Assembly (NCBI GenBank): GCA_007376385.1
Contig: VMGC01000002.1
Span: 128,001-192,000, forward strand
Source: Parcubacteria group bacterium Gr01-1014_8
GTDB lineage: Bacteria > Patescibacteriota > Minisyncoccia > Phycocordibacterales > UBA2100
DNA length: 64,000 bases
Direction: 5' to 3'
How positions within the stretch are numbered: the first letter of the stretch is position 1; every line of letters starts with the position of its first letter. Below are positions 30,611 through 64,000 of this stretch, in pieces. The notes under the pieces are model-generated. The model saw only the letters and a list, made by a program, of their open reading frames with translations, was not told where the DNA came from and did not search any database. Both the position numbers and the translations under genes were made by a program.

Positions 30611-30690
30611 AATTACTCCTGCTTTATTTCCGAGCCGAGGAGCAAACACAGGTTCAATACCTCGGAGCTTGCTCCGAAGAACCTTTATCT
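30611..30690 (-). repeat. Stop-codon-associated structured repeat (copy B, inverted)
   Basis: Reverse complement reads AAAGGTTCTTCGGAGCAAGCTCCGAGGTATTGAACCTGTGTTTGCTCCTCGGCTCGGAAAT. Confidence 0.65.
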
Positions 30691-31262
30691 TTGCGAGGGC
30701 GAATAAATACAAATATATCATTCGCCGAGTAGGTGTCATCGGAATTTGCTCGAAGCTCGAGTTGACGTTGTCCCGGAAGAAGAAATCGCATGGGACCAGC
30801 GATAGAAGAAAGTCCAAAAACATGAGACGTATGGGCGCTGACTGGAATAGCTTGCATACCAAGTACCAGGTGTTCGCCAGGAGGTTGATTACGATATTGG
30901 ATACGAAGCAATGGGCCTACTTGAGGTGGACATAATTCGAGCCCATGTGCCACAGCAATTTCACAAATATATTTGTAGAGTCCCGTGCCATGCTTTATTT
31001 TGTCGTAATCGAAACCCAGGCTTCGTGCTGACAGTGTCACTAATTCTACTTCTCTGCTTTTTGGCGCGTCTTGAAATGATGCGGTTTCAAGGAGTTGATG
31101 CGCGTCTTGAGTGATGTAACATCCAGCATCATTGAGCTTCTTCCGGAAAGACGATGCGGATTCCGAATGGGCAGGAAGCATGAGGCGCATGAGAACTGGC
31201 AATTTCTCTATTGATGTATCAGCATGAGCCGTATCCGTATTGGACTTGGGATAGTTTTTCAT
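30654..31262 (-). CDS. Hypothetical protein
   Basis: ORF with an ATG start. Contains Cys, His and Asp candidates but no confident family assignment. Confidence 0.35.
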   Translation of the reverse strand: MKNYPKSNTDTAHADTSIEKLPVLMRLMLPAHSESASSFRKKLNDAGCYITQDAHQLLETASFQDAPKSREVELVTLSARSLGFDYDKIKHGTGLYKYICEIAVAHGLELCPPQVGPLLRIQYRNQPPGEHLVLGMQAIPVSAHTSHVFGLSSIAGPMRFLLPGQRQLELRANSDDTYSANDIFVFIRPRKDKGSSEQAPRY

Positions 31263-31379
31263 TGTGCAAGTGTAAAGCTCCGTATACTTCGTGTCGACTG
31301 CCAGTTATGCTGAGACAGGACGTTGCGCTGGTTTCAACTTGATATATACTTCATTTTTAATGCTCCAACATCTCATCGA

Positions 31380-31437
31380 CCCCAGTACCACAAGCCCTTC
31401 GGGCTTGGCTACGGGGCGAGGTTCATTGCATGAATAT
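31380..31437 (+). promoter_or_regulatory. Conserved 5'-leader hairpin with UUCG tetraloop upstream of pyrB
   Basis: CCCCAGTACCACAAGCCCTTCGGGCTTGGCTACGGGG followed by CGAGGTTCATTGCAT. Near-identical to 61463-61544 upstream of uvrA. Confidence 0.5.
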
Positions 31438-31475
31438 ACTTGCGCGGGCGTGCAGTCCGTGGAGAAAATAATGTT

Positions 31476-32387
31476 ATGCAACATCTGATCGAAACCCAGC
31501 AGTTCGATAGAGAAGCTCTTAGCAAATTGTTTGCGCTTGCGACCACTCTTGAGGGGAAGCGCGAAGAATCACTCAAAGGCAAGATACTTGCCTCTCTTTT
31601 TTACGCACCGTCCACTCGAACGCGGCTTTCATTCGAATCAGCGATGATGCGGCTCGGAGGCAATGTTCTTTCGATGGAAAATGCAAGCGAATCATCGTCG
31701 GCAACAAAAGGCGAGACAATCGAAGACACGATACGCATCGTGGATGATTATGCCGACATTATCGTCCTCAGACACACGGAAGTCGGGACTGCGGCGAAGG
31801 CGGCAGCTGTCTCGGAAGTTCCCATTATCAATGCAGGAGATGGCATTGGACAACACCCGACGCAAGCGTTTCTCGATCTGTATACAATAGAGCGCGAAAT
31901 AGGGCGCACAGACGACTTCCACATTGCATTTGTGGGTAATCTTGCGTATTACCGGACCGCGCGTTCGCTTGCGTATCTTTTGGGAAAATACAATAAAGTA
32001 AAAATGACGTTTGTTTCTGCGCCGGAGCTCCGGATGAAAGATGATGTCAAGGATTATTTGAAGGAAAAAAATGTGCATTTTGAAGAAACGGAAGACTTGG
32101 AAAGCACGATGAAAGTAGCAGATGTGGTGTATCAAACGCGGGTAGCGGAAGAATGGATACCGAACGAGGAGGATTACAAAAAACTTCGCGACAAATACGT
32201 CATCACGCGCCCAATGACCGACGTAATGAAAGAGGGGGCCATCCTCATTCATCCTCTGCCCCGTGCCGGAGAAATAGCACCTGAAGTCGACGATTCGCCT
32301 CACGCTGTCTACTTCAAACAAGCGGGGTATGGTGTGCTTGTGCGCATGGCGCTATTGAAGCTCTTAGCCAATGGCGAGAAGGTGTAA
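31476..32387 (+). CDS. pyrB: Aspartate carbamoyltransferase catalytic subunit
   Basis: STRTRLSFE and HPTQAFLD motifs. GGAG lies 11 nt upstream of ATG 31476. Confidence 0.85.
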   Translation: MQHLIETQQFDREALSKLFALATTLEGKREESLKGKILASLFYAPSTRTRLSFESAMMRLGGNVLSMENASESSSATKGETIEDTIRIVDDYADIIVLRHTEVGTAAKAAAVSEVPIINAGDGIGQHPTQAFLDLYTIEREIGRTDDFHIAFVGNLAYYRTARSLAYLLGKYNKVKMTFVSAPELRMKDDVKDYLKEKNVHFEETEDLESTMKVADVVYQTRVAEEWIPNEEDYKKLRDKYVITRPMTDVMKEGAILIHPLPRAGEIAPEVDDSPHAVYFKQAGYGVLVRMALLKLLANGEKV

Positions 32388-45894: not shown

Positions 45895-46068
45895 CACCAC
45901 TCCTTCGGGGTTGGGTGAAAGTCCCAATCGGCGGTATAGCCCGCGAGTTCTTAGGGACACGATTTGGTGAGATTCCAAAGCCGACCGTACAGTCGGGATG
46001 AAAGAAGGAAGCGAGGCACCCTTGTTGGATGCTTGCGTGGTAACCCCGATGGATCGGGGTTTTTTATT
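45895..46068 (+). ncRNA. FMN riboswitch (RFN element) with an SD-sequestering/terminator hairpin
   Basis: TCCTTCGGGGTTGGGTGAAAGTCCCAATCGGCGGTATAGCCCGCGAG...GGTGAGATTCCAAAGCCGACCGTACAGTCGGGATGAAAGAAGG matches the RFN core. Followed by CCCCGATGGATCGGGGTTTTTT, directly upstream of ribE. Confidence 0.85.
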
Positions 46069-60763: not shown

Positions 60764-60955
60764 CTACTCCCGGTCAAAGACCCACACGTACAGTACAAAC
60801 CAGCCGATGATGGTCCATGCGATGGCAAGATTGGTAAATATGACGCCGCCAGCGTTCGGATGGCGCCGTATCAAAGCCAGTATTCCGGGGAAAAAATACA
60901 CGTATGTAGCCATAGCCACGTAGAGATAAACCATGAAATGCAAAAAAAGCAACAT
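60764..60955 (-). CDS. Superinfection-immunity-like small membrane protein (Imm_superinfect family), paralog 1
   Basis: YFFPGILALIRRHPNAGGVIFTNLAIAWTIIGWFVLYVWVF matches the YxLPxIIAxxRxH...N...GWTxIGW pattern. Confidence 0.55.
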   Translation of the reverse strand: MLLFLHFMVYLYVAMATYVYFFPGILALIRRHPNAGGVIFTNLAIAWTIIGWFVLYVWVFDRE

Positions 60956-61080: not shown

Positions 61081-61260
61081 CTAATTAGTACTTTGTCTGT
61101 CAAATACCCACGCGAACAAGACAAACCATCCAATGATGGTCCAGCCGATGGCGATGTTCGTAAAGAAAATACCGCCGGGACTAGAATGGCGCAGAATGAC
61201 AGCCAATATTGTGGGGAAGAAATACACGAACAACCCTCCCGCAACGTATGCGTATATCAT
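61081..61260 (-). CDS. Superinfection-immunity-like small membrane protein, paralog 2 (tandem duplicate)
   Basis: YFFPTILAVILRHSSPGGIFFTNIAIGWTIIGWFVLFAWVF. DNA is about 75% identical to paralog 1. Confidence 0.55.
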   Translation of the reverse strand: MIYAYVAGGLFVYFFPTILAVILRHSSPGGIFFTNIAIGWTIIGWFVLFAWVFDRQSTN

Positions 61261-61347
61261 GAGCAATTGTAACCACAAAGTCGAAGGTATCAAATAGACC
61301 ACTGTGAATTAGGGCGAATGGTTGGCTCTTTCGGCAGATACGAGAAA

Positions 61348-61452
61348 TGGTATACCCCGTGAGATAAAAAGGTCTCAAAATTATGCGGCAAGCGCACATG
61401 TACTCAAAATTCCTTTTTTTGCCTATAGTCACGGGCTATCTCATGGGGTATA
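61348..61452. repeat. Palindromic-arm element copy 3
   Basis: Arms GGTATACCCCGTGAGATAAAAAG and CTATCTCATGGGGTATAC flank a ~65-bp spacer. Lies between divergent immunity-like and uvrA genes. Confidence 0.6.
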
Positions 61453-61462
61453 CTCGTCCGTG

Positions 61463-61544
61463 TCCCCGGTACCACAAGTCCTTCGGACTTGACTACGGGG
61501 CAGGTAACCCCTCGGACAAGACGAGGGGCGAGGCTATTTGCATC
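61463..61544 (+). promoter_or_regulatory. Conserved 5'-leader hairpin with UUCG tetraloop upstream of uvrA
   Basis: CCCCGGTACCACAAGTCCTTCGGACTTGACTACGGGG, an extra CCCCTCG..CGAGGGG hairpin, then CGAGGCTATTTGCAT. Paralogous to 31380-31437. Confidence 0.5.
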
Positions 61545-64000
61545 ATGATAGAATCATCAAAAAATTCAGAAGGGCCAGGCAAGATCATCGTAAAGGGGGC
61601 GAGGACGCATAACTTAAAAAATATCAGCGTCGAGATACCTCGTAATAAAATGGTCGTCTTTACGGGGCTCTCGGGAAGCGGGAAATCGTCGCTGGCATTC
61701 GACACAATTTTTGCTGAAGGCCAGCGTAAGTACGTGGAATCGCTTTCCGCTTACGCGAGGCAGTTCTTACGTCAAATGCAAAAGCCCGATGTTGACGAGA
61801 TCAGCGGTCTTTCTCCTGCCATCTCTATCGACCAAAAAAGCCGCTCAAATAATCCGCGCTCTACCGTTGCGACGATAACGGAAATTTACGATTACCTGCG
61901 CGTACTGTACTCGCGTGTCGGACATCCCCACTGTCCCGTCTGCGGCCGAATAGTAAAAAAAATGTCGAATGAGGAAATTCTTGAGACCGTTTTGAAGGTA
62001 GTCGATGCAGCAAAAGCTTCAAAAAATGTCCCCAAGGGTAAGCACACGAAGGGAGTAACGGACGCAAAGGTACGCATAACCGCTCCGGTTGTCGTCGGAC
62101 GAAAGGGTGAATATTACCAGCTTCTGTACGACATGTTGAACAAGGGTTTTGAGAAAGTCATCATCGATGGTGAGGAGAAATCACTACGTGAGCGCATTGA
62201 GCTAAAAAAACATTTCAAGCACGATATAGATGTCGTTGTTGATGAGATATTCGTGAGCGAGTTCAAGGATGATGCGAAAGGCTCTCGCGAACGAGCAAGT
62301 GAATCCATCGAGCGCGCGCTCCATGAAGCCGAGGGTCTCGTAAAAATAATCGATCCTGAGGGCGGTGCGCATATCGTATCCGCAAAATTCATGTGTCCGT
62401 ATGATGGCTTTTCATTTCCCGAAGTTGAACCTCGGCTTTTTTCGTTCAATTCTCCATACGGAGCCTGTCCCACGTGCAATGGCTTAGGAACCAAATATTT
62501 TTTTGGAGATGAGCAGTGCGATACATGTCAGGGCGCACGTCTCCGAAGCGAAGCGTTGCATGTGTTTCTTGGGAGCGAAAAAAAGGAAGGCGCGCGGCAG
62601 AATATCGTGCAAGTAACAAGCATGTCTATAGCGAATGCTCGTAAATTCTTCGACGAGCTGGTATTAACGGAAAAGGAAAAAGAAATATCAAAAGTCGTCA
62701 TAAAAGAAATAGTAAACCGGCTCCAATTCATGCTTGACGTCGGTATCGAATATCTGACGCTTGATAGACGGGCAAATACACTCTCTGGCGGCGAAGCGCA
62801 ACGGATCCGCCTTGCTTCACAGCTTGGGAGCGGGCTTGTGGGTGCGCTCTATGTCCTCGATGAGCCGACCATCGGTCTTCACCAAAAAGATAACGACAGG
62901 CTTATTGAGACGCTTAAACATCTCCGCGAACTGGGAAATACTGTGCTTGTCGTAGAACATGACGAGGATACGATATTTGCCGCCGATTACATTGTTGATC
63001 TGGGACCCGGCGCCGGCACGCACGGCGGGGAAATAGTCGTAGCAGGCTGGCTTGAAGAACTCTTGACCGCCAAGACGAATAAGTCGGGCTCTAGGACCTT
63101 GGCGTATCTTCGCGACGAAACTCGGATCGAAATGCCGGAAAAACGACGTACGAACGACAAGGGAAAAATAAAAATTCGCGGAGCATCAAAATTCAATCTT
63201 GAAAAAGTGAATGTAGACGTGCCGCTTGGAAAATTAGTTGTTATCACCGGCGTTTCCGGTAGCGGGAAATCAACTTTTTTGTACGAAATCATGCATCGGA
63301 ATTTACTCGCCAGATTCGATAAACGATTTCGAAATGCAAAAACCTACAACGCAGCAGAGTTTACTGGAACGGAATACCTGGGCCGTTCGATACTCATTGA
63401 CCAGTCGCCGATAGGCAGGACGCCGCGCTCAAATCCCGCGACCTATACGGGGGCGTTCACGCATATTCGAGACATGTTCGCGATGAGCGAAGAGGCGCGT
63501 GCGCGCGGATGGGGGCCAGGCAGGTTCAGTTTTAACCGCAAGGGCGGGCGATGCGAAGCGTGCGAAGGGAACGGCATGGTCGCCGTTGAGATGCACTTTT
63601 TGCCGACGGTGTATGTCACGTGCGATGTGTGCGCAGGAAGACGTTTTATGAAGGAAACGCTTGAGGTGAAATTCAAGAAAAAAAGCATACACGATATTTT
63701 GAAGATGACCGTCGAGGAAGCGCTTACGTTTTTTACTGACATTCCAGCCATATCAGACCGCCTTAAAACGTTGAGCAATGTTGGACTTGGTTATCTTCAA
63801 TTGGGGCAGAGCGCAACGACACTCTCCGGCGGCGAAGCGCAACGCGTAAAAATAGCGTCGGAGTTGTATCGTCCGCATCAGACAAAAACGATGTACCTCT
63901 TGGACGAACCAACCGTCGGACTTCACTATGACGATGTGCAGAAGCTCATCGAAATTCTCCAACGACTCGTTGAGAGAGGGAACTCGGTAGTCGTTATCGA
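61545..64000 (+). CDS. uvrA: Excinuclease ABC subunit A (5' part; continues beyond the window)
   Basis: GLSGSGKSSLAFDTIFAEGQRKYVESLSAYARQFL, zinc-finger CxxC pairs and a second ABC module (GVSGSGKST). No stop before the window end. Confidence 0.95.
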   Translation, partial: MIESSKNSEGPGKIIVKGARTHNLKNISVEIPRNKMVVFTGLSGSGKSSLAFDTIFAEGQRKYVESLSAYARQFLRQMQKPDVDEISGLSPAISIDQKSRSNNPRSTVATITEIYDYLRVLYSRVGHPHCPVCGRIVKKMSNEEILETVLKVVDAAKASKNVPKGKHTKGVTDAKVRITAPVVVGRKGEYYQLLYDMLNKGFEKVIIDGEEKSLRERIELKKHFKHDIDVVVDEIFVSEFKDDAKGSRERASESIERALHEAEGLVKIIDPEGGAHIVSAKFMCPYDGFSFPEVEPRLFSFNSPYGACPTCNGLGTKYFFGDEQCDTCQGARLRSEALHVFLGSEKKEGARQNIVQVTSMSIANARKFFDELVLTEKEKEISKVVIKEIVNRLQFMLDVGIEYLTLDRRANTLSGGEAQRIRLASQLGSGLVGALYVLDEPTIGLHQKDNDRLIETLKHLRELGNTVLVVEHDEDTIFAADYIVDLGPGAGTHGGEIVVAGWLEELLTAKTNKSGSRTLAYLRDETRIEMPEKRRTNDKGKIKIRGASKFNLEKVNVDVPLGKLVVITGVSGSGKSTFLYEIMHRNLLARFDKRFRNAKTYNAAEFTGTEYLGRSILIDQSPIGRTPRSNPATYTGAFTHIRDMFAMSEEARARGWGPGRFSFNRKGGRCEACEGNGMVAVEMHFLPTVYVTCDVCAGRRFMKETLEVKFKKKSIHDILKMTVEEALTFFTDIPAISDRLKTLSNVGLGYLQLGQSATTLSGGEAQRVKIASELYRPHQTKTMYLLDEPTVGLHYDDVQKLIEILQRLVERGNSVVVI

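Follow-up and report, generated by a model that had tools for sequence, protein, structure and literature searches.

The REP elements mobilised by RAYT (HUH/Y1) are imperfect palindromes of 20-40 nt with conserved unpaired bases and a GTAG or CGTC tag beside the stem-loop; they are scattered near gene ends, are extragenic and high in copy number, and often form inverted pairs. attC sites have an outer stem that is constant, one arm with fixed extrahelical bases and a terminal stem-loop of free sequence; they are recombined as folded single-stranded DNA by an Xer-related tyrosine recombinase. At e14 and phage 21 in E. coli icd, and in tRNA-gene integration, the end of the gene occurs twice, one copy joined to the gene and one displaced, with mostly synonymous differences between them. 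Palindromes inside coding sequence are represented by the Rickettsia palindromic elements (RPEs), by MITEs in ORFs and by mitochondrial byp elements, which are short, mobile and GC-rich; in T4 gene 60 and byp, a stable hairpin directly follows a codon that recurs downstream. Genomes of the CPR/Patescibacteria are tiny and are usually thought to be repeat-poor, and a conserved palindrome at the termini of their essential genes (those for ribosomal proteins, tsaD, gyrB, dnaG, uvrA/B and pyrB) may be a mobile, recombination or control element specific to this radiation.

We analysed a window of 64 kb, the whole stretch of DNA at hand, in which an earlier note had reported a hairpin shared by the leaders of pyrB and uvrA. 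The pattern given in that note was scanned on the window and on 100 shuffled sequences. It matched the window twice, both times on the + strand (31385-31416 and 61469-61500), and matched none of the 100 shuffles (chance expectation 0), so the shared sequence is real, as is the second hairpin described as inserted at uvrA. With the full CCCC...GGGG clamp included, the hairpins end 59 nt before the pyrB ATG (31476) and 44 nt before the uvrA ATG (61545), and the two loci share a 3' tail. The features of the two loci are as follows.

31345..31350, + strand: -10-like hexamer TATACT, 9 nt before the displaced ATG; probable position of the native pyrB promoter
31360..31380, + strand: displaced repeat of the start of pyrB, ATGCTCCAACATCTCATCGAC (MLQHLID), directly against the hairpin's 5' foot
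31360..31488, + strand: uORF of 42 codons, from the displaced ATG through the hairpin to a stop 10 nt into pyrB
31380..31416, + strand: palindromic element, copy 1, CCCC-A-GTA-C-C-A-C / 6-bp stem / UUC / stem / GG-C-TAC-GGGG (66.4 bits, E 4e-14)
31417..31431, + strand: conserved 3' tail CGAGGTTCATTGCAT, of the type C-G-R-G-R-Y...TGCAT, common to the uvrA copy and the pyrB-linked copies in L019 and L052/L107
31432..31475, + strand: spacer, apparently a decayed copy of a ribU-like gene's 3' end, joined to the second ATG (modest support)
31476..32387, + strand: pyrB (Pfam OTCace_N, OTCace), functional start at 31476-31495
61426..61454, + strand: promoter-like TAGTCA-17-TATACT, a weak match to the consensus only (9 of 12 positions)
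61464..61500, + strand: palindromic element, copy 2, with a C.A mismatch at 61473/61492 (56.5 bits, E 1e-11)
61506..61528, + strand: second hairpin AACCCC-TCG-GACAAGA-CGA-GGGG (model match of 9.5 bits, clamp and tail only)
61529..61544, + strand: tail CGAGGCTATTTGCATC, of the same type as the pyrB tail
61545..64000, + strand: uvrA (Pfam UvrA_inter, ABC_tran), running off the window

Both copies were more stable than shuffled sequence (-27.3 kcal/mol, z -3.9, and -38.2 kcal/mol, z -2.7). The covariance model of the family found nothing besides these two copies above 10 bits in the 64 kb. The second hairpin at uvrA looks like a gutted second copy that has retained the outer clamp.

The window hairpins are members of a previously undescribed family of palindromic repeats of the CPR/Patescibacteria. 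Copies were located at about 60 loci in MAGs of Kaiserbacteria, Paceibacterota and other Patescibacteria. In pattern scans, GTDB CPR genomes contributed about 33 loci (36-nt core) and metagenomes 28 (37-nt core, the only variant that the metagenome pattern covered). Every one of these loci scored 46-70 bits with the covariance model (R1), with orthologous loci counting as non-independent data points. Copy number was low, with two copies in the window and only three more in 386 kb of flanks (R1), and at all loci searched with R1 the units were solitary and formed no arrays. Rfam 15 at the gathering threshold gave no match to the element, its sole match in the window being an FMN riboswitch at 45897-46013; at E<=10, the two hairpin regions gave nothing or noise (a serC leader at 13 bits vs a gathering score of 35). 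A protein search with the three-frame translations of the core had no match at E<=10, and a literature search found no description of this element. Three matches in viral contigs lacked both the clamp and the hairpin and were set aside as chance. The 37-nt metagenome variant also showed that loop length varies.

The element consists of a 36-37-nt palindromic core and a tail of 5-16 nt. The core forms 15 pairs with two bulges and one mismatch, and its constant arms are CCCC-R-GTACCAC / GGCTACGGGG (written in full, CCCCRGTACCAC and GGCTACGGGG); their invariance is partly by construction, because the search patterns fixed the arms. The earlier note had taken the four stem differences between the pyrB and uvrA copies as covariation. 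Only one of the four is a compensatory pair (C31395-G31403 vs T61479-A61487), while A31384/G61468 is a bulged base without a pair and the change from G31408 to A61492 disrupts a C-G pair, so that the two copies alone carry no statistical covariation. Covariation did emerge with the relatives: among 56 copies 98.3% of cells were paired and all six inner pairs of the 6-bp stem covaried, with 115 double changes in the inner stem vs 27.4 +/- 5.7 after shuffling (0 of 500 shuffles as high). As a register control, pairing fell below 50% once the partner was slid by at least one column. These results support the hairpin as a selected structure. The cUUCGg tetraloop that had been proposed, on the other hand, was not borne out. 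Inside the 6-bp stem AAGYCC/GGRCTT there is room for only three loop nucleotides, UUC, with a closing C-G pair, and the loops of the relatives are UUC, UGC, UAC, GAA, AGA or 4 nt long; since both sequence and length vary, the loop is not a UUCG tetraloop.

The few mismatches in the stem bear on which nucleic acid is folded. On the sense strand, seven of the non-Watson-Crick stem pairs were A.C and two were G.U (only nine mismatches in all), which is the opposite of what is expected if RNA transcribed from this strand were the folded molecule. There is a hint in this pattern that it is the bottom strand that folds. The fold under selection would probably be one of DNA rather than RNA. On the bottom strand the tetranucleotide GTAG is invariant (CCCC-GTAG-CC-stem), 2 nt from the variable stem, where it pairs with TAC and is enclosed by the CCCC/GGGG clamp.

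The element resembles REPs in its size, its imperfect palindrome with conserved unpaired bases and its scatter near gene ends. Its GTAG beside the stem-loop may correspond to the REP tag, though here it is paired inside the clamp. The element differs from REPs in that it occurs as single units in low copy number, many of which overlap coding sequence, and in that about half of the copies carry duplications of 20-75 nt of a gene terminus. REPs within genes for replication and repair are also on record, as are REPs that provide a stop codon (PMC3733652); the term 'duplication' is absent from that paper. The element's low copy number is unlike that of typical REP or MITE families. As in a MITE, the arms are inverted repeats, but the flanking repeats measure 0 or about 20-75 nt, where a MITE would have a short target-site duplication of fixed length, and no parent IS is known. 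The layout is similar to that of attC sites (outer stem, extrahelical bases and terminal stem-loop); the arms, however, contain no RYYYAAC/GTTRRRY boxes, arrays, attI and intI are all missing, and the 'cargo' would be only 40-75 nt of a gene end. A CRISPR repeat would fit in length (36-37 nt), but the copies are single and not in an array.

More than 25 unrelated genes, with identities confirmed by Pfam, adjoin copies of the element. They include translation-related genes (rplX, rpmB, rplT, rpmI, tuf, infB, efp, lepA, smpB and tsaD) and genes of replication and repair (dnaG, gyrB, uvrA, uvrB, xerC/D and comEC). The element lies directly 3' of a ...GAC-like site, and the gene body was on its 3' side in every identified case. 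It is oriented sense at gene starts and antisense at gene ends, the latter at the 3' ends of secF, hppA, lepA, gyrB, xerC/D, ndk and efp; about one-third of the copies are antisense to the sole adjacent gene, and the mRNA there has the complementary loops and bulges. Orientation relative to GC skew was positive at 32 of 46 loci, a figure confounded by gene orientation. All three sense frames of the element are open, and it is translated in different frames at different loci. Inside dnaG, uvrA and LamG genes it is in frame, a likeness to RPEs and MITEs in ORFs; RPEs, however, are 100-150 bp long, belong to a different phylum and lack terminal gene duplications. At uvrA in the window, the frame of the hairpin is open and in frame with uvrA from an ATG at 61443.

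At about 25 loci, roughly half, the 5' foot of the element has next to it the end of a repeat, no more than 3 nt away, which recurs 0-80 nt past the core. The repeated segment is about 20-75 nt long and contains the start codon of the gene at rplX, rpmB, rplT, rpmI, tsaD, pyrB and ATR, or the stop codon at secF, hppA, lepA, gyrB and xerC/D. The distance from the end of the core to the end of the repeat clusters at 41-45 nt and 77-80 nt, and the two repeat ends lie 77-115 nt apart, with only the hairpin and a spacer between them. At the LamG loci, where the flanking repeat is 0 nt, the in-frame insertions have no duplication at all, so duplication is not an obligatory product of insertion. A left flank co-mobilised after a cut at an upstream GAC was considered and rejected, no GAC being present at the left repeat borders. 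A 'guide plus seed' arrangement, with the best match next to the hairpin, was also rejected (identity 0.75-0.89 at all distances).

The displaced copies are conserved as coding sequence. Among 21 repeat pairs, the displaced and working copies differed by 83 synonymous and 15 non-synonymous codon changes, distributed over the three codon positions as 19, 8 and 97. The non-synonymous fraction was 0.15, vs 0.64 (minimum 0.46) in a simulated neutral displaced copy. At xerC/D all 16 aligned amino acids were identical despite 11 synonymous changes, and at gyrB all 14 were identical despite 10. The peptides encoded by the two copies do differ at some loci, for example at tsaD in L012 (MKILGIE and MKVLGIE) and at rplX in L007 (MKLKKGD and MKIKKGD). 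At gyrB and two xer loci the frame of the displaced copy is closed by a TAG within the reverse-complemented core, and in-place translation therefore cannot explain the conservation there. Gene conversion does occur (33 of 33 nt identical at locus L092), but as the sole cause it cannot yield saturated synonymous divergence beside almost no non-synonymous change. This duplicated terminus with mostly synonymous differences and an intact gene is what is seen for the surrogate gene ends of e14 and phage 21, where the repeats flank a multi-kb integrase-encoding element; here they flank 77-115 nt of hairpin and spacer only. What produces the duplication, and what preserves the coding sequence of the displaced copy, may be new biology. 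The intact displaced copies also pose a testable choice between a DNA module that cycles in and out and an interruption that is skipped in expression.

Whether the displaced copy continues past the element was also examined. Over all loci the continuation was not significant (5.3 vs 5.0). It was significant in the CAGGC-tail class only, at a fixed offset (4.7 vs 2.8 of 8), a value that comes from orthologous sets with some sequences typed by hand.

The pyrB locus shows the patchy presence of the element among relatives. PyrB of the window is 100% identical to that of the NCBI entry 'Parcubacteria group bacterium Gr01-1014'. The element is present upstream of pyrB in the window, L019 and L052/L107, and absent in L100/101, in L105 and L106 (87% PyrB identity to the window) and in L102, L103, L104 and L108; the closest sampled relatives of the window thus have clean empty pyrB sites. 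The three occupied alleles have a pyrB-specific tail and spacer end in common. In the window, the displaced start ATGCTCCAACATCTCATCGAC aligns to the real pyrB start ATGCAACATCTGATCGAA, with one extra codon and 1 nt short at the junction, and the sequence upstream of it corresponds to the native context in L103, an empty relative. The hexamer at 31345..31350 was not among the calls of the consensus promoter scan, and the arrangement TAYACT-N8-9-ATG also occurs in eight relatives without the element. The spacer aligned to the ribU 3' end of L103 with a score of 27 vs a null maximum of 26 to 28 (p ~0.003 to 0.005).

A position at the ends of housekeeping genes, often beside spare terminal codons, makes the element look like small mobile DNA and not like a regulator of pyrB and uvrA. 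We consider it somewhat probable that the element is REP- or attC-like DNA, mobile or recombinogenic, with the RNA hairpin as a by-product. A transposase or recombinase would presumably recognise the constant arms with their fixed bulges, either on single-stranded DNA in its folded form or on a cruciform, while in the inner stem pairing alone would be needed. Insertion at a point within the first or last codons would give two copies of the terminal segment. The gene would stay intact because one copy, with the start or stop codon, lies on the 3' side, and the displaced terminal copy would remain against the 5' foot. Hairpin, spacer and surrogate gene end could then exit and re-enter by recombination at the 5' foot, and a module that leaves and re-enters like a miniature of the e14/phage 21 surrogate icd end would explain the intact displaced copy. 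In the annotated flanks no Y1/HUH transposase gene was seen and no transposase or recombinase was linked to the element; nor was any excision product, circle junction or population with both empty and occupied alleles seen. Genomes whose gene bodies were only about 63-68% identical (DNA) had orthologous insertions in common, a pattern that suits a feature under stable inheritance, possibly of use to the host, better than an active parasite.

Translation has adapted to the insertion, to judge by the uORF stops near the real start at the sense loci and the fixed spacing at tsaD (both given below). At pyrB, the native promoter and start would drive the 42-codon uORF through the hairpin; this uORF ends at the real pyrB start, so pyrB is probably translated by termination-reinitiation. 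At uvrA, the hairpin followed by the gutted second copy would form the 5' end of the transcript, which is predicted from the promoter consensus match to start 2-4 nt before the hairpin. The uORF coupled to pyrB and the 5'-terminal hairpin on the uvrA transcript are likely side effects at the RNA level, and neither is probably the reason for the element's existence.

More tentatively, the element might represent a new class of miniature integrative cassette in CPR, about 80-115 nt long, in which a spacer would join a folded recombination site to a surrogate for the first or last segment of an essential gene. Recombination at the foot of the hairpin, possibly through an Xer-type recombinase or an HUH enzyme, would carry such a cassette into and out of the ends of housekeeping genes, and both the native and the surrogate gene end would be under selection at the protein level.

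The best-surviving alternative, which we judge rather unlikely, is a cis-acting RNA element of the host that is bound by a common factor or acts as a 5' or 3' stabiliser or processing site and, together with the uORF, sets translation of the downstream housekeeping gene. The strongly conserved hairpin structure, the many translation-related neighbours and the orthologous positions kept over deep divergence are all consistent with such an element, and so is the layout of the sense loci. There the hairpin is part of a uORF that stops close to the real start; in each of the 20 sense loci examined, the stop falls at -35 to +11 relative to the real ATG. At tsaD the overlap is ATGA in four of four loci, and core and spacer compensate each other in length to a fixed 80 nt (36+44 or 37+43). 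The uORF design and the fixed spacing point to selection at the level of translation, which leaves room for a role in RNA. The predicted start of the uvrA transcript just before the hairpin would also suit an RNA element.

Of the functional RNA hairpin proposed in the earlier note, then, the selected structure stood, but the RNA leader did not fare well. The copies that are antisense to their only adjacent gene, the translation of the element in three different frames and also inside ORFs, and the excess of A.C over G.U among nine mismatches all argue against it. The element is also missing from the pyrB leader of the closest relatives with no sign of a replacement, and an RNA element leaves the displaced copies at 3' ends and their coding-type conservation unexplained. 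The note had already thought a PyrR-type attenuator unlikely, and this was upheld by the more than 25 unrelated neighbours and by the lack of any Rfam match (RF00515 included) at E<=10 in 31300-31520. An intrinsic terminator was rejected, as there were no terminator-like sites in either region and the hairpin is followed by CGAGG or CAGGT.

It is less probable still that the element is a fixed, non-mobile DNA site of the host, for example a site where a replication, repair or recombination protein binds or is loaded, which is inherited vertically and occasionally lost by deletion between the flanking repeats. The low copy number, the deep conservation of orthologous positions and the replication and repair genes among the neighbours would suit such a site, and recombination between the repeats would restore clean native sites like those of the relatives. 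One constant core at more than 25 unrelated genes, and in frame in coding sequence, nevertheless points to spread by copying, and a fixed site gives no reason for the terminal duplications, the polarity or the coding conservation of the displaced copies.

We give little weight to an interruption that is skipped in expression, either by a ribosome hop between the copy ends or by removal of the intervening RNA, so that the displaced copy encodes part of the protein; if true, it would be equally new. Both copies are under protein-type constraint. At sense loci, the codon directly ahead of the hairpin repeats the one that ends the functional copy or is synonymous with it, and the stable hairpin sets in immediately afterwards, as in the layout of gene 60. 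The functional copy, however, carries a start or stop of its own and yields a whole protein unaided. The gap is 77-115 nt, longer than the 50 nt of gene 60, the putative take-off codon is not followed by a stop, and at tsaD there are Asp codons within the gap. The same geometry at 3' ends has the hairpin reversed, on the landing side, and unlike in gene 60 and byp, whole gene termini are duplicated with their start or stop codons, in both orientations. At pyrB in the window, a frameshift would result if the displaced start, with its extra codon and missing nucleotide, were joined to the gene body. Chance similarity, or a recent leader duplication private to this genome, could be entertained only from the two copies in the window and is refuted by the chance expectation of zero matches and the roughly 60 related copies in other genomes and metagenomes.

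The element also has consequences for annotation. It creates false or extended ORF calls and uORFs, gives rise to apparent N- or C-terminal duplications in CPR gene models and adds 12-14 residues to conserved proteins. Its core is a simple marker for these CPR lineages.

The pattern from which a leader shared by pyrB and uvrA had been proposed matched the window exactly twice, both times on the + strand, and gave no match in shuffled sequences. The hairpins at the two genes are as follows.

31380-31416, + strand, hairpin of the pyrB copy, 37 nt
61464-61500, + strand, hairpin of the uvrA copy, 37 nt
61506-61528, + strand, second hairpin at uvrA, after the core and CAGGT

In both copies the 5' arm runs CCCC, a bulged A/G, GTA, C, C, a bulged A and C, the centre is a 6-bp stem (AAGYCC/GGRCTT) around a 3-nt loop, and the 3' arm is GG, C, TAC and GGGG. 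Both folded better than shuffled sequence. The inserted hairpin that the earlier note had reported at uvrA was present 3' of CAGGT, and the tail said to be common to both loci, CGAGGYT.TTTGCAT, was borne out. The UUCG tetraloop had to be abandoned, as cUUCGg is out of register with the 6-bp stem, which closes a 3-nt loop. The four stem differences that had been read as covariation included only one compensatory pair (31395/31403 versus 61479/61487); one of them was bulged and one was pair-breaking. No Rfam family matched the hairpins and the test for a PyrR site failed, in agreement with the view that a PyrR-type attenuator is unlikely; no terminator-like T run was found at the hairpins. Elsewhere in the window, an FMN riboswitch (RF00050, 104 bits) was detected at 45897-46013 (+), upstream of an ORF starting near 45964.

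A scan of GTDB with one genome per species, in which the pattern specified the arms but allowed any base at the inner 17 nt, returned 66 places. About half were chance matches to Actinomycetota coding sequence and formed no hairpin. At these matches (among the retrieved loci, which carry L-numbers, L014, L026, L032-L034 and others) a conserved coding motif, ...(R)YHK..LPNYGVFDE, fits the arm pattern by chance, a warning against searching by pattern alone. The remaining 33 places lay in Kaiserbacteria, Paceibacterota and 'Saccharibacteria'-labelled MAGs, with a stem possible in all. The metagenome scan used a pattern one N longer, so that only a 4-nt-loop variant was recoverable, and gave 28 loci with that variant. 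With 33 GTDB and 28 metagenome loci elsewhere, a recent leader duplication limited to two copies is untenable. Across 56 non-redundant copies, all six pairs of the inner stem covaried, with 115 cells of double-sided change against 27.4 +/- 5.7 in column shuffles (0/500 shuffles reached 115), which supports the covariation claimed for the stem. Paired cells amounted to 98.3% and fell below 50% once the 3' partner was slid by at least one column; the outer nine pairs were invariant, but they are fixed by the search patterns. R1, a covariance model built from the copies, scored the two hairpins at 66.4 and 56.5 bits and found no others in the window apart from a faint match on the second uvrA hairpin, to clamp and tail only; 386 kb of flanks yielded three more, including a 5-bp-stem variant and one in front of rpmI. 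The family thus has a conserved sequence and few copies, and it occurs widely in the CPR/Patescibacteria radiation. At L090 (4134-4170), L091 (1351-1387) and L095 (1905-1942) the core lies within longer conserved flanks (left TCGCAGA..ACGCAGACTTMAC, right CACGGCGCAGAAGGTCGCAGAA); these may be composite elements or a larger form.

Neighbouring genes were identified by Pfam as dnaG, rplX, lepA, tsaD, a PduO-type adenosyltransferase, H+-pyrophosphatase, smpB, uvrB, secF, a XerC/D-type recombinase, comEC, msrA, gyrB, folD, pyruvate kinase, tuf, infB, ndk, efp, uvrA and pyrB, and by sequence as rpmB, rplT and rpmI. The element was found in three settings: in sense orientation just upstream of or within a gene's 5' end, antisense 12-24 nt past the stop codon, or in frame within dnaG, uvrA and LamG-type genes. 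In LamG-type proteins (L072, L073, L075, L080/82/83/89 and L094) it forms an in-frame insertion between ...GLID and (E)VRVYNRAL, most clearly at L094, where a clean 42 nt is inserted with no flanking repeat. The core is open in all three sense frames, and since different frames are used at different loci, no peptide is conserved. Mismatches in the variable stem, read on the sense strand, were A.C seven times and G.U twice. An RNA folding from the sense strand should give more G.U than A.C, so the A.C excess, small as the mismatch numbers are, and the antisense copies point to a DNA-level feature. The functional RNA hairpin favoured by the earlier note, and with it the rival reading of a host RNA element, retains the conserved, covarying pairing but is opposed by the mismatch bias and the antisense copies.

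At about 25 loci, the sequence adjoining the 5' foot of the element (...GAC|CCCC) recurs downstream. The repeat contains the downstream gene's start codon where the element is sense and the stop codon where it is antisense, and wherever the gene was identified, its body is on the 3' side of the element. The displaced copy, the duplicate gene end, is thus always at the 5' foot and the functional copy is joined to the gene body; no mirrored duplications were found among low-scoring loci. Under permissive scoring, several loci have a second copy that starts 0-10 nt past the core, and repeats are up to 40-42 nt or 63-75 nt long. Measured from the end of the core to the end of the repeat, distances fall into two clusters, 41-45 nt and 77-80 nt. 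At L024, rpmI and rplT of the same operon each carry an element and a duplicated start (55-98 and 382-423, both -). In the window, the displaced copy at pyrB is ATGCTCCAACATCTCATCGAC (31360-31380), with the real start, ATGCAACATCTGATCGAA, at 31476. No clear repeat was found at the window uvrA; at L074 the uvrA repeat is present and in frame (KIIIKGARTH, core, KIIVKGARTHNLKN). Window 61384-61420 (+) encodes AASAHVLKIP, with a faint likeness (alignment score 15) to UvrA GARTHNLKNI 100 nt downstream, and may be the decayed remnant of a displaced uvrA start.

Displaced and functional copies were compared in 21 repeat pairs comprising 191 codons. Codon differences were synonymous in 83 cases and non-synonymous in 15 (61 and 7 with one locus per gene), and nucleotide differences at codon positions 1, 2 and 3 numbered 19, 8 and 97. 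The non-synonymous share was 15%, compared with 64% for a simulated neutral displaced copy (minimum 46% in 2000 runs). The displaced copies of xerC/D (16/16 amino acids identical, 18/18 read to the stop; 11 synonymous changes, AGA/CGT Arg twice), gyrB (14/14; 10 synonymous changes) and secF (14/14; 7 synonymous changes) were unchanged in protein sequence. Between orthologous loci the displaced copy was 76-89% identical, matching the conservation of the functional copy, whereas gene bodies were only 62-68% identical and spacers near random. The displaced copy does not show the decay of junk sequence. Gene conversion, seen at L092 (33/33 nucleotides identical), was rejected as the only cause, as it cannot saturate synonymous sites with changes and leave non-synonymous sites almost untouched. 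A TAG within the reverse-complemented core closes the displaced copy's frame at gyrB and two xer loci, so translation in place is not the general reason for conservation. Nor is coding conservation universal, since in the window the displaced pyrB copy contains one additional codon, CTC, and lacks 1 nt at the junction.

The window PyrB is identical to the protein of an NCBI MAG, 'Parcubacteria group bacterium Gr01-1014', and occurs on two metagenome contigs; its nearest relatives are Kaiserbacteria and Paceibacterota, which places the window in a CPR/Patescibacteria genome. Nine further pyrB loci from relatives were searched with R1, filters off. The element was present in the window, L019 and L052/L107, and absent from L100/101, L105 and L106 (each 87% identical to the window in PyrB) and from L102, L103, L104 and L108; its distribution is patchy because occupied loci share only 67-77% PyrB identity. 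The ribU-like gene of the empty L100/101, L103 and L106 ends 5-17 nt before the pyrB ATG, so the 202-aa ORF without a Pfam match that lies between these genes in the window (30654-31262, -) was inserted there. TAYACT stands 7-9 nt before the pyrB ATG at 7/8 empty loci (not L102) and in the window (31345-31350), and TATACT-N9 precedes the uvrA hairpin (61449-61454); this spacing suggests leaderless or near-leaderless mRNAs. The window displaced start is in its native context (TATACTTCATTTTTA-ATG, compared with TACACTTCATTTTTA-ATG in L103). The three occupied alleles have a common pyrB-specific tail, CGRGRYTCATTGCA, and a spacer ending GAAAAGTRAT beside the second ATG. The end of this spacer aligns, with modest statistics, to the sequence around the ribU stop in empty relatives, but their promoter-bearing intergenic segment is missing from it. 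Both one old insertion with several precise losses through recombination between repeats, and movement of a module (hairpin, spacer and surrogate start) between lineages, fit this pattern.

On the best-supported reading, this is a palindromic DNA element resembling REP and attC sequences, and a protein recognises its arms when the DNA is folded. The element would sit 3' of a GAC-like site and have spread to many gene ends, and a gene would recombine at the 5' foot with a small module carrying a surrogate gene end. Recombination there would produce the polarity of the duplications, which a symmetric target-site duplication would not, and a surrogate-end module would account for two copies that both remain coding-intact as well as for the patchiness. 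Neither an enzyme nor a circle or polymorphism was seen, and the fixed lengths, the module's origin and the repeat-free insertions would fall outside this explanation. The other rivals to such a module are a bypass during expression and a host DNA site that is fixed. The e14 element and phage 21 carry a surrogate icd end, of which the proposed module would be a miniature version. Less likely than not, but a serious possibility, is that the duplicated gene ends reflect an as yet undescribed mechanism. The XerC/D-type tyrosine recombinase gene itself carries an antisense element at its 3' end with displaced C-terminal codons (L077, L078/L085, L084 and L088), with at least two different junctions; the recombinase may be the cognate enzyme or merely a favoured target, a lead rather than evidence.

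As an attC site, MITE, CRISPR repeat, PyrR site, terminator or UUCG tetraloop, the element failed each defining test, and literature searches, including with the sequence itself, found no published description of it. Among known elements, GTAG-tagged REPs come closest. A published survey (PMC3733652) reports REPs within replication and repair genes and REPs supplying stop codons but mentions no duplications, whereas gene ends are duplicated here. We filed the element as a palindromic repeat element in kind.

At all 20 sense loci examined, an ORF from the displaced ATG reads through the hairpin, and its stop lies from -35 to +11 relative to the real ATG. The window example is as follows.

31360-31488, + strand, uORF from the displaced ATG at pyrB

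At tsaD the uORF forms an ATGA overlap in 4/4 genomes, and core and spacer together always measure 80 nt (36+44 or 37+43). This geometry indicates selection for translational coupling, with reinitiation after the uORF, and fits adaptation of the host to the insertion. The promoter-like TAGTCA-17-TATACT at uvrA places the predicted transcript start 2-4 nt before the hairpin. Both RNA-level effects are regarded as secondary. Between murB and uvrA lie tandem paralogous small membrane-protein ORFs of 63 and 73 aa (60764-60955 and 61081-61302, both -), both ending ...NxAIxWTIIGWFVLxxWVFDR.
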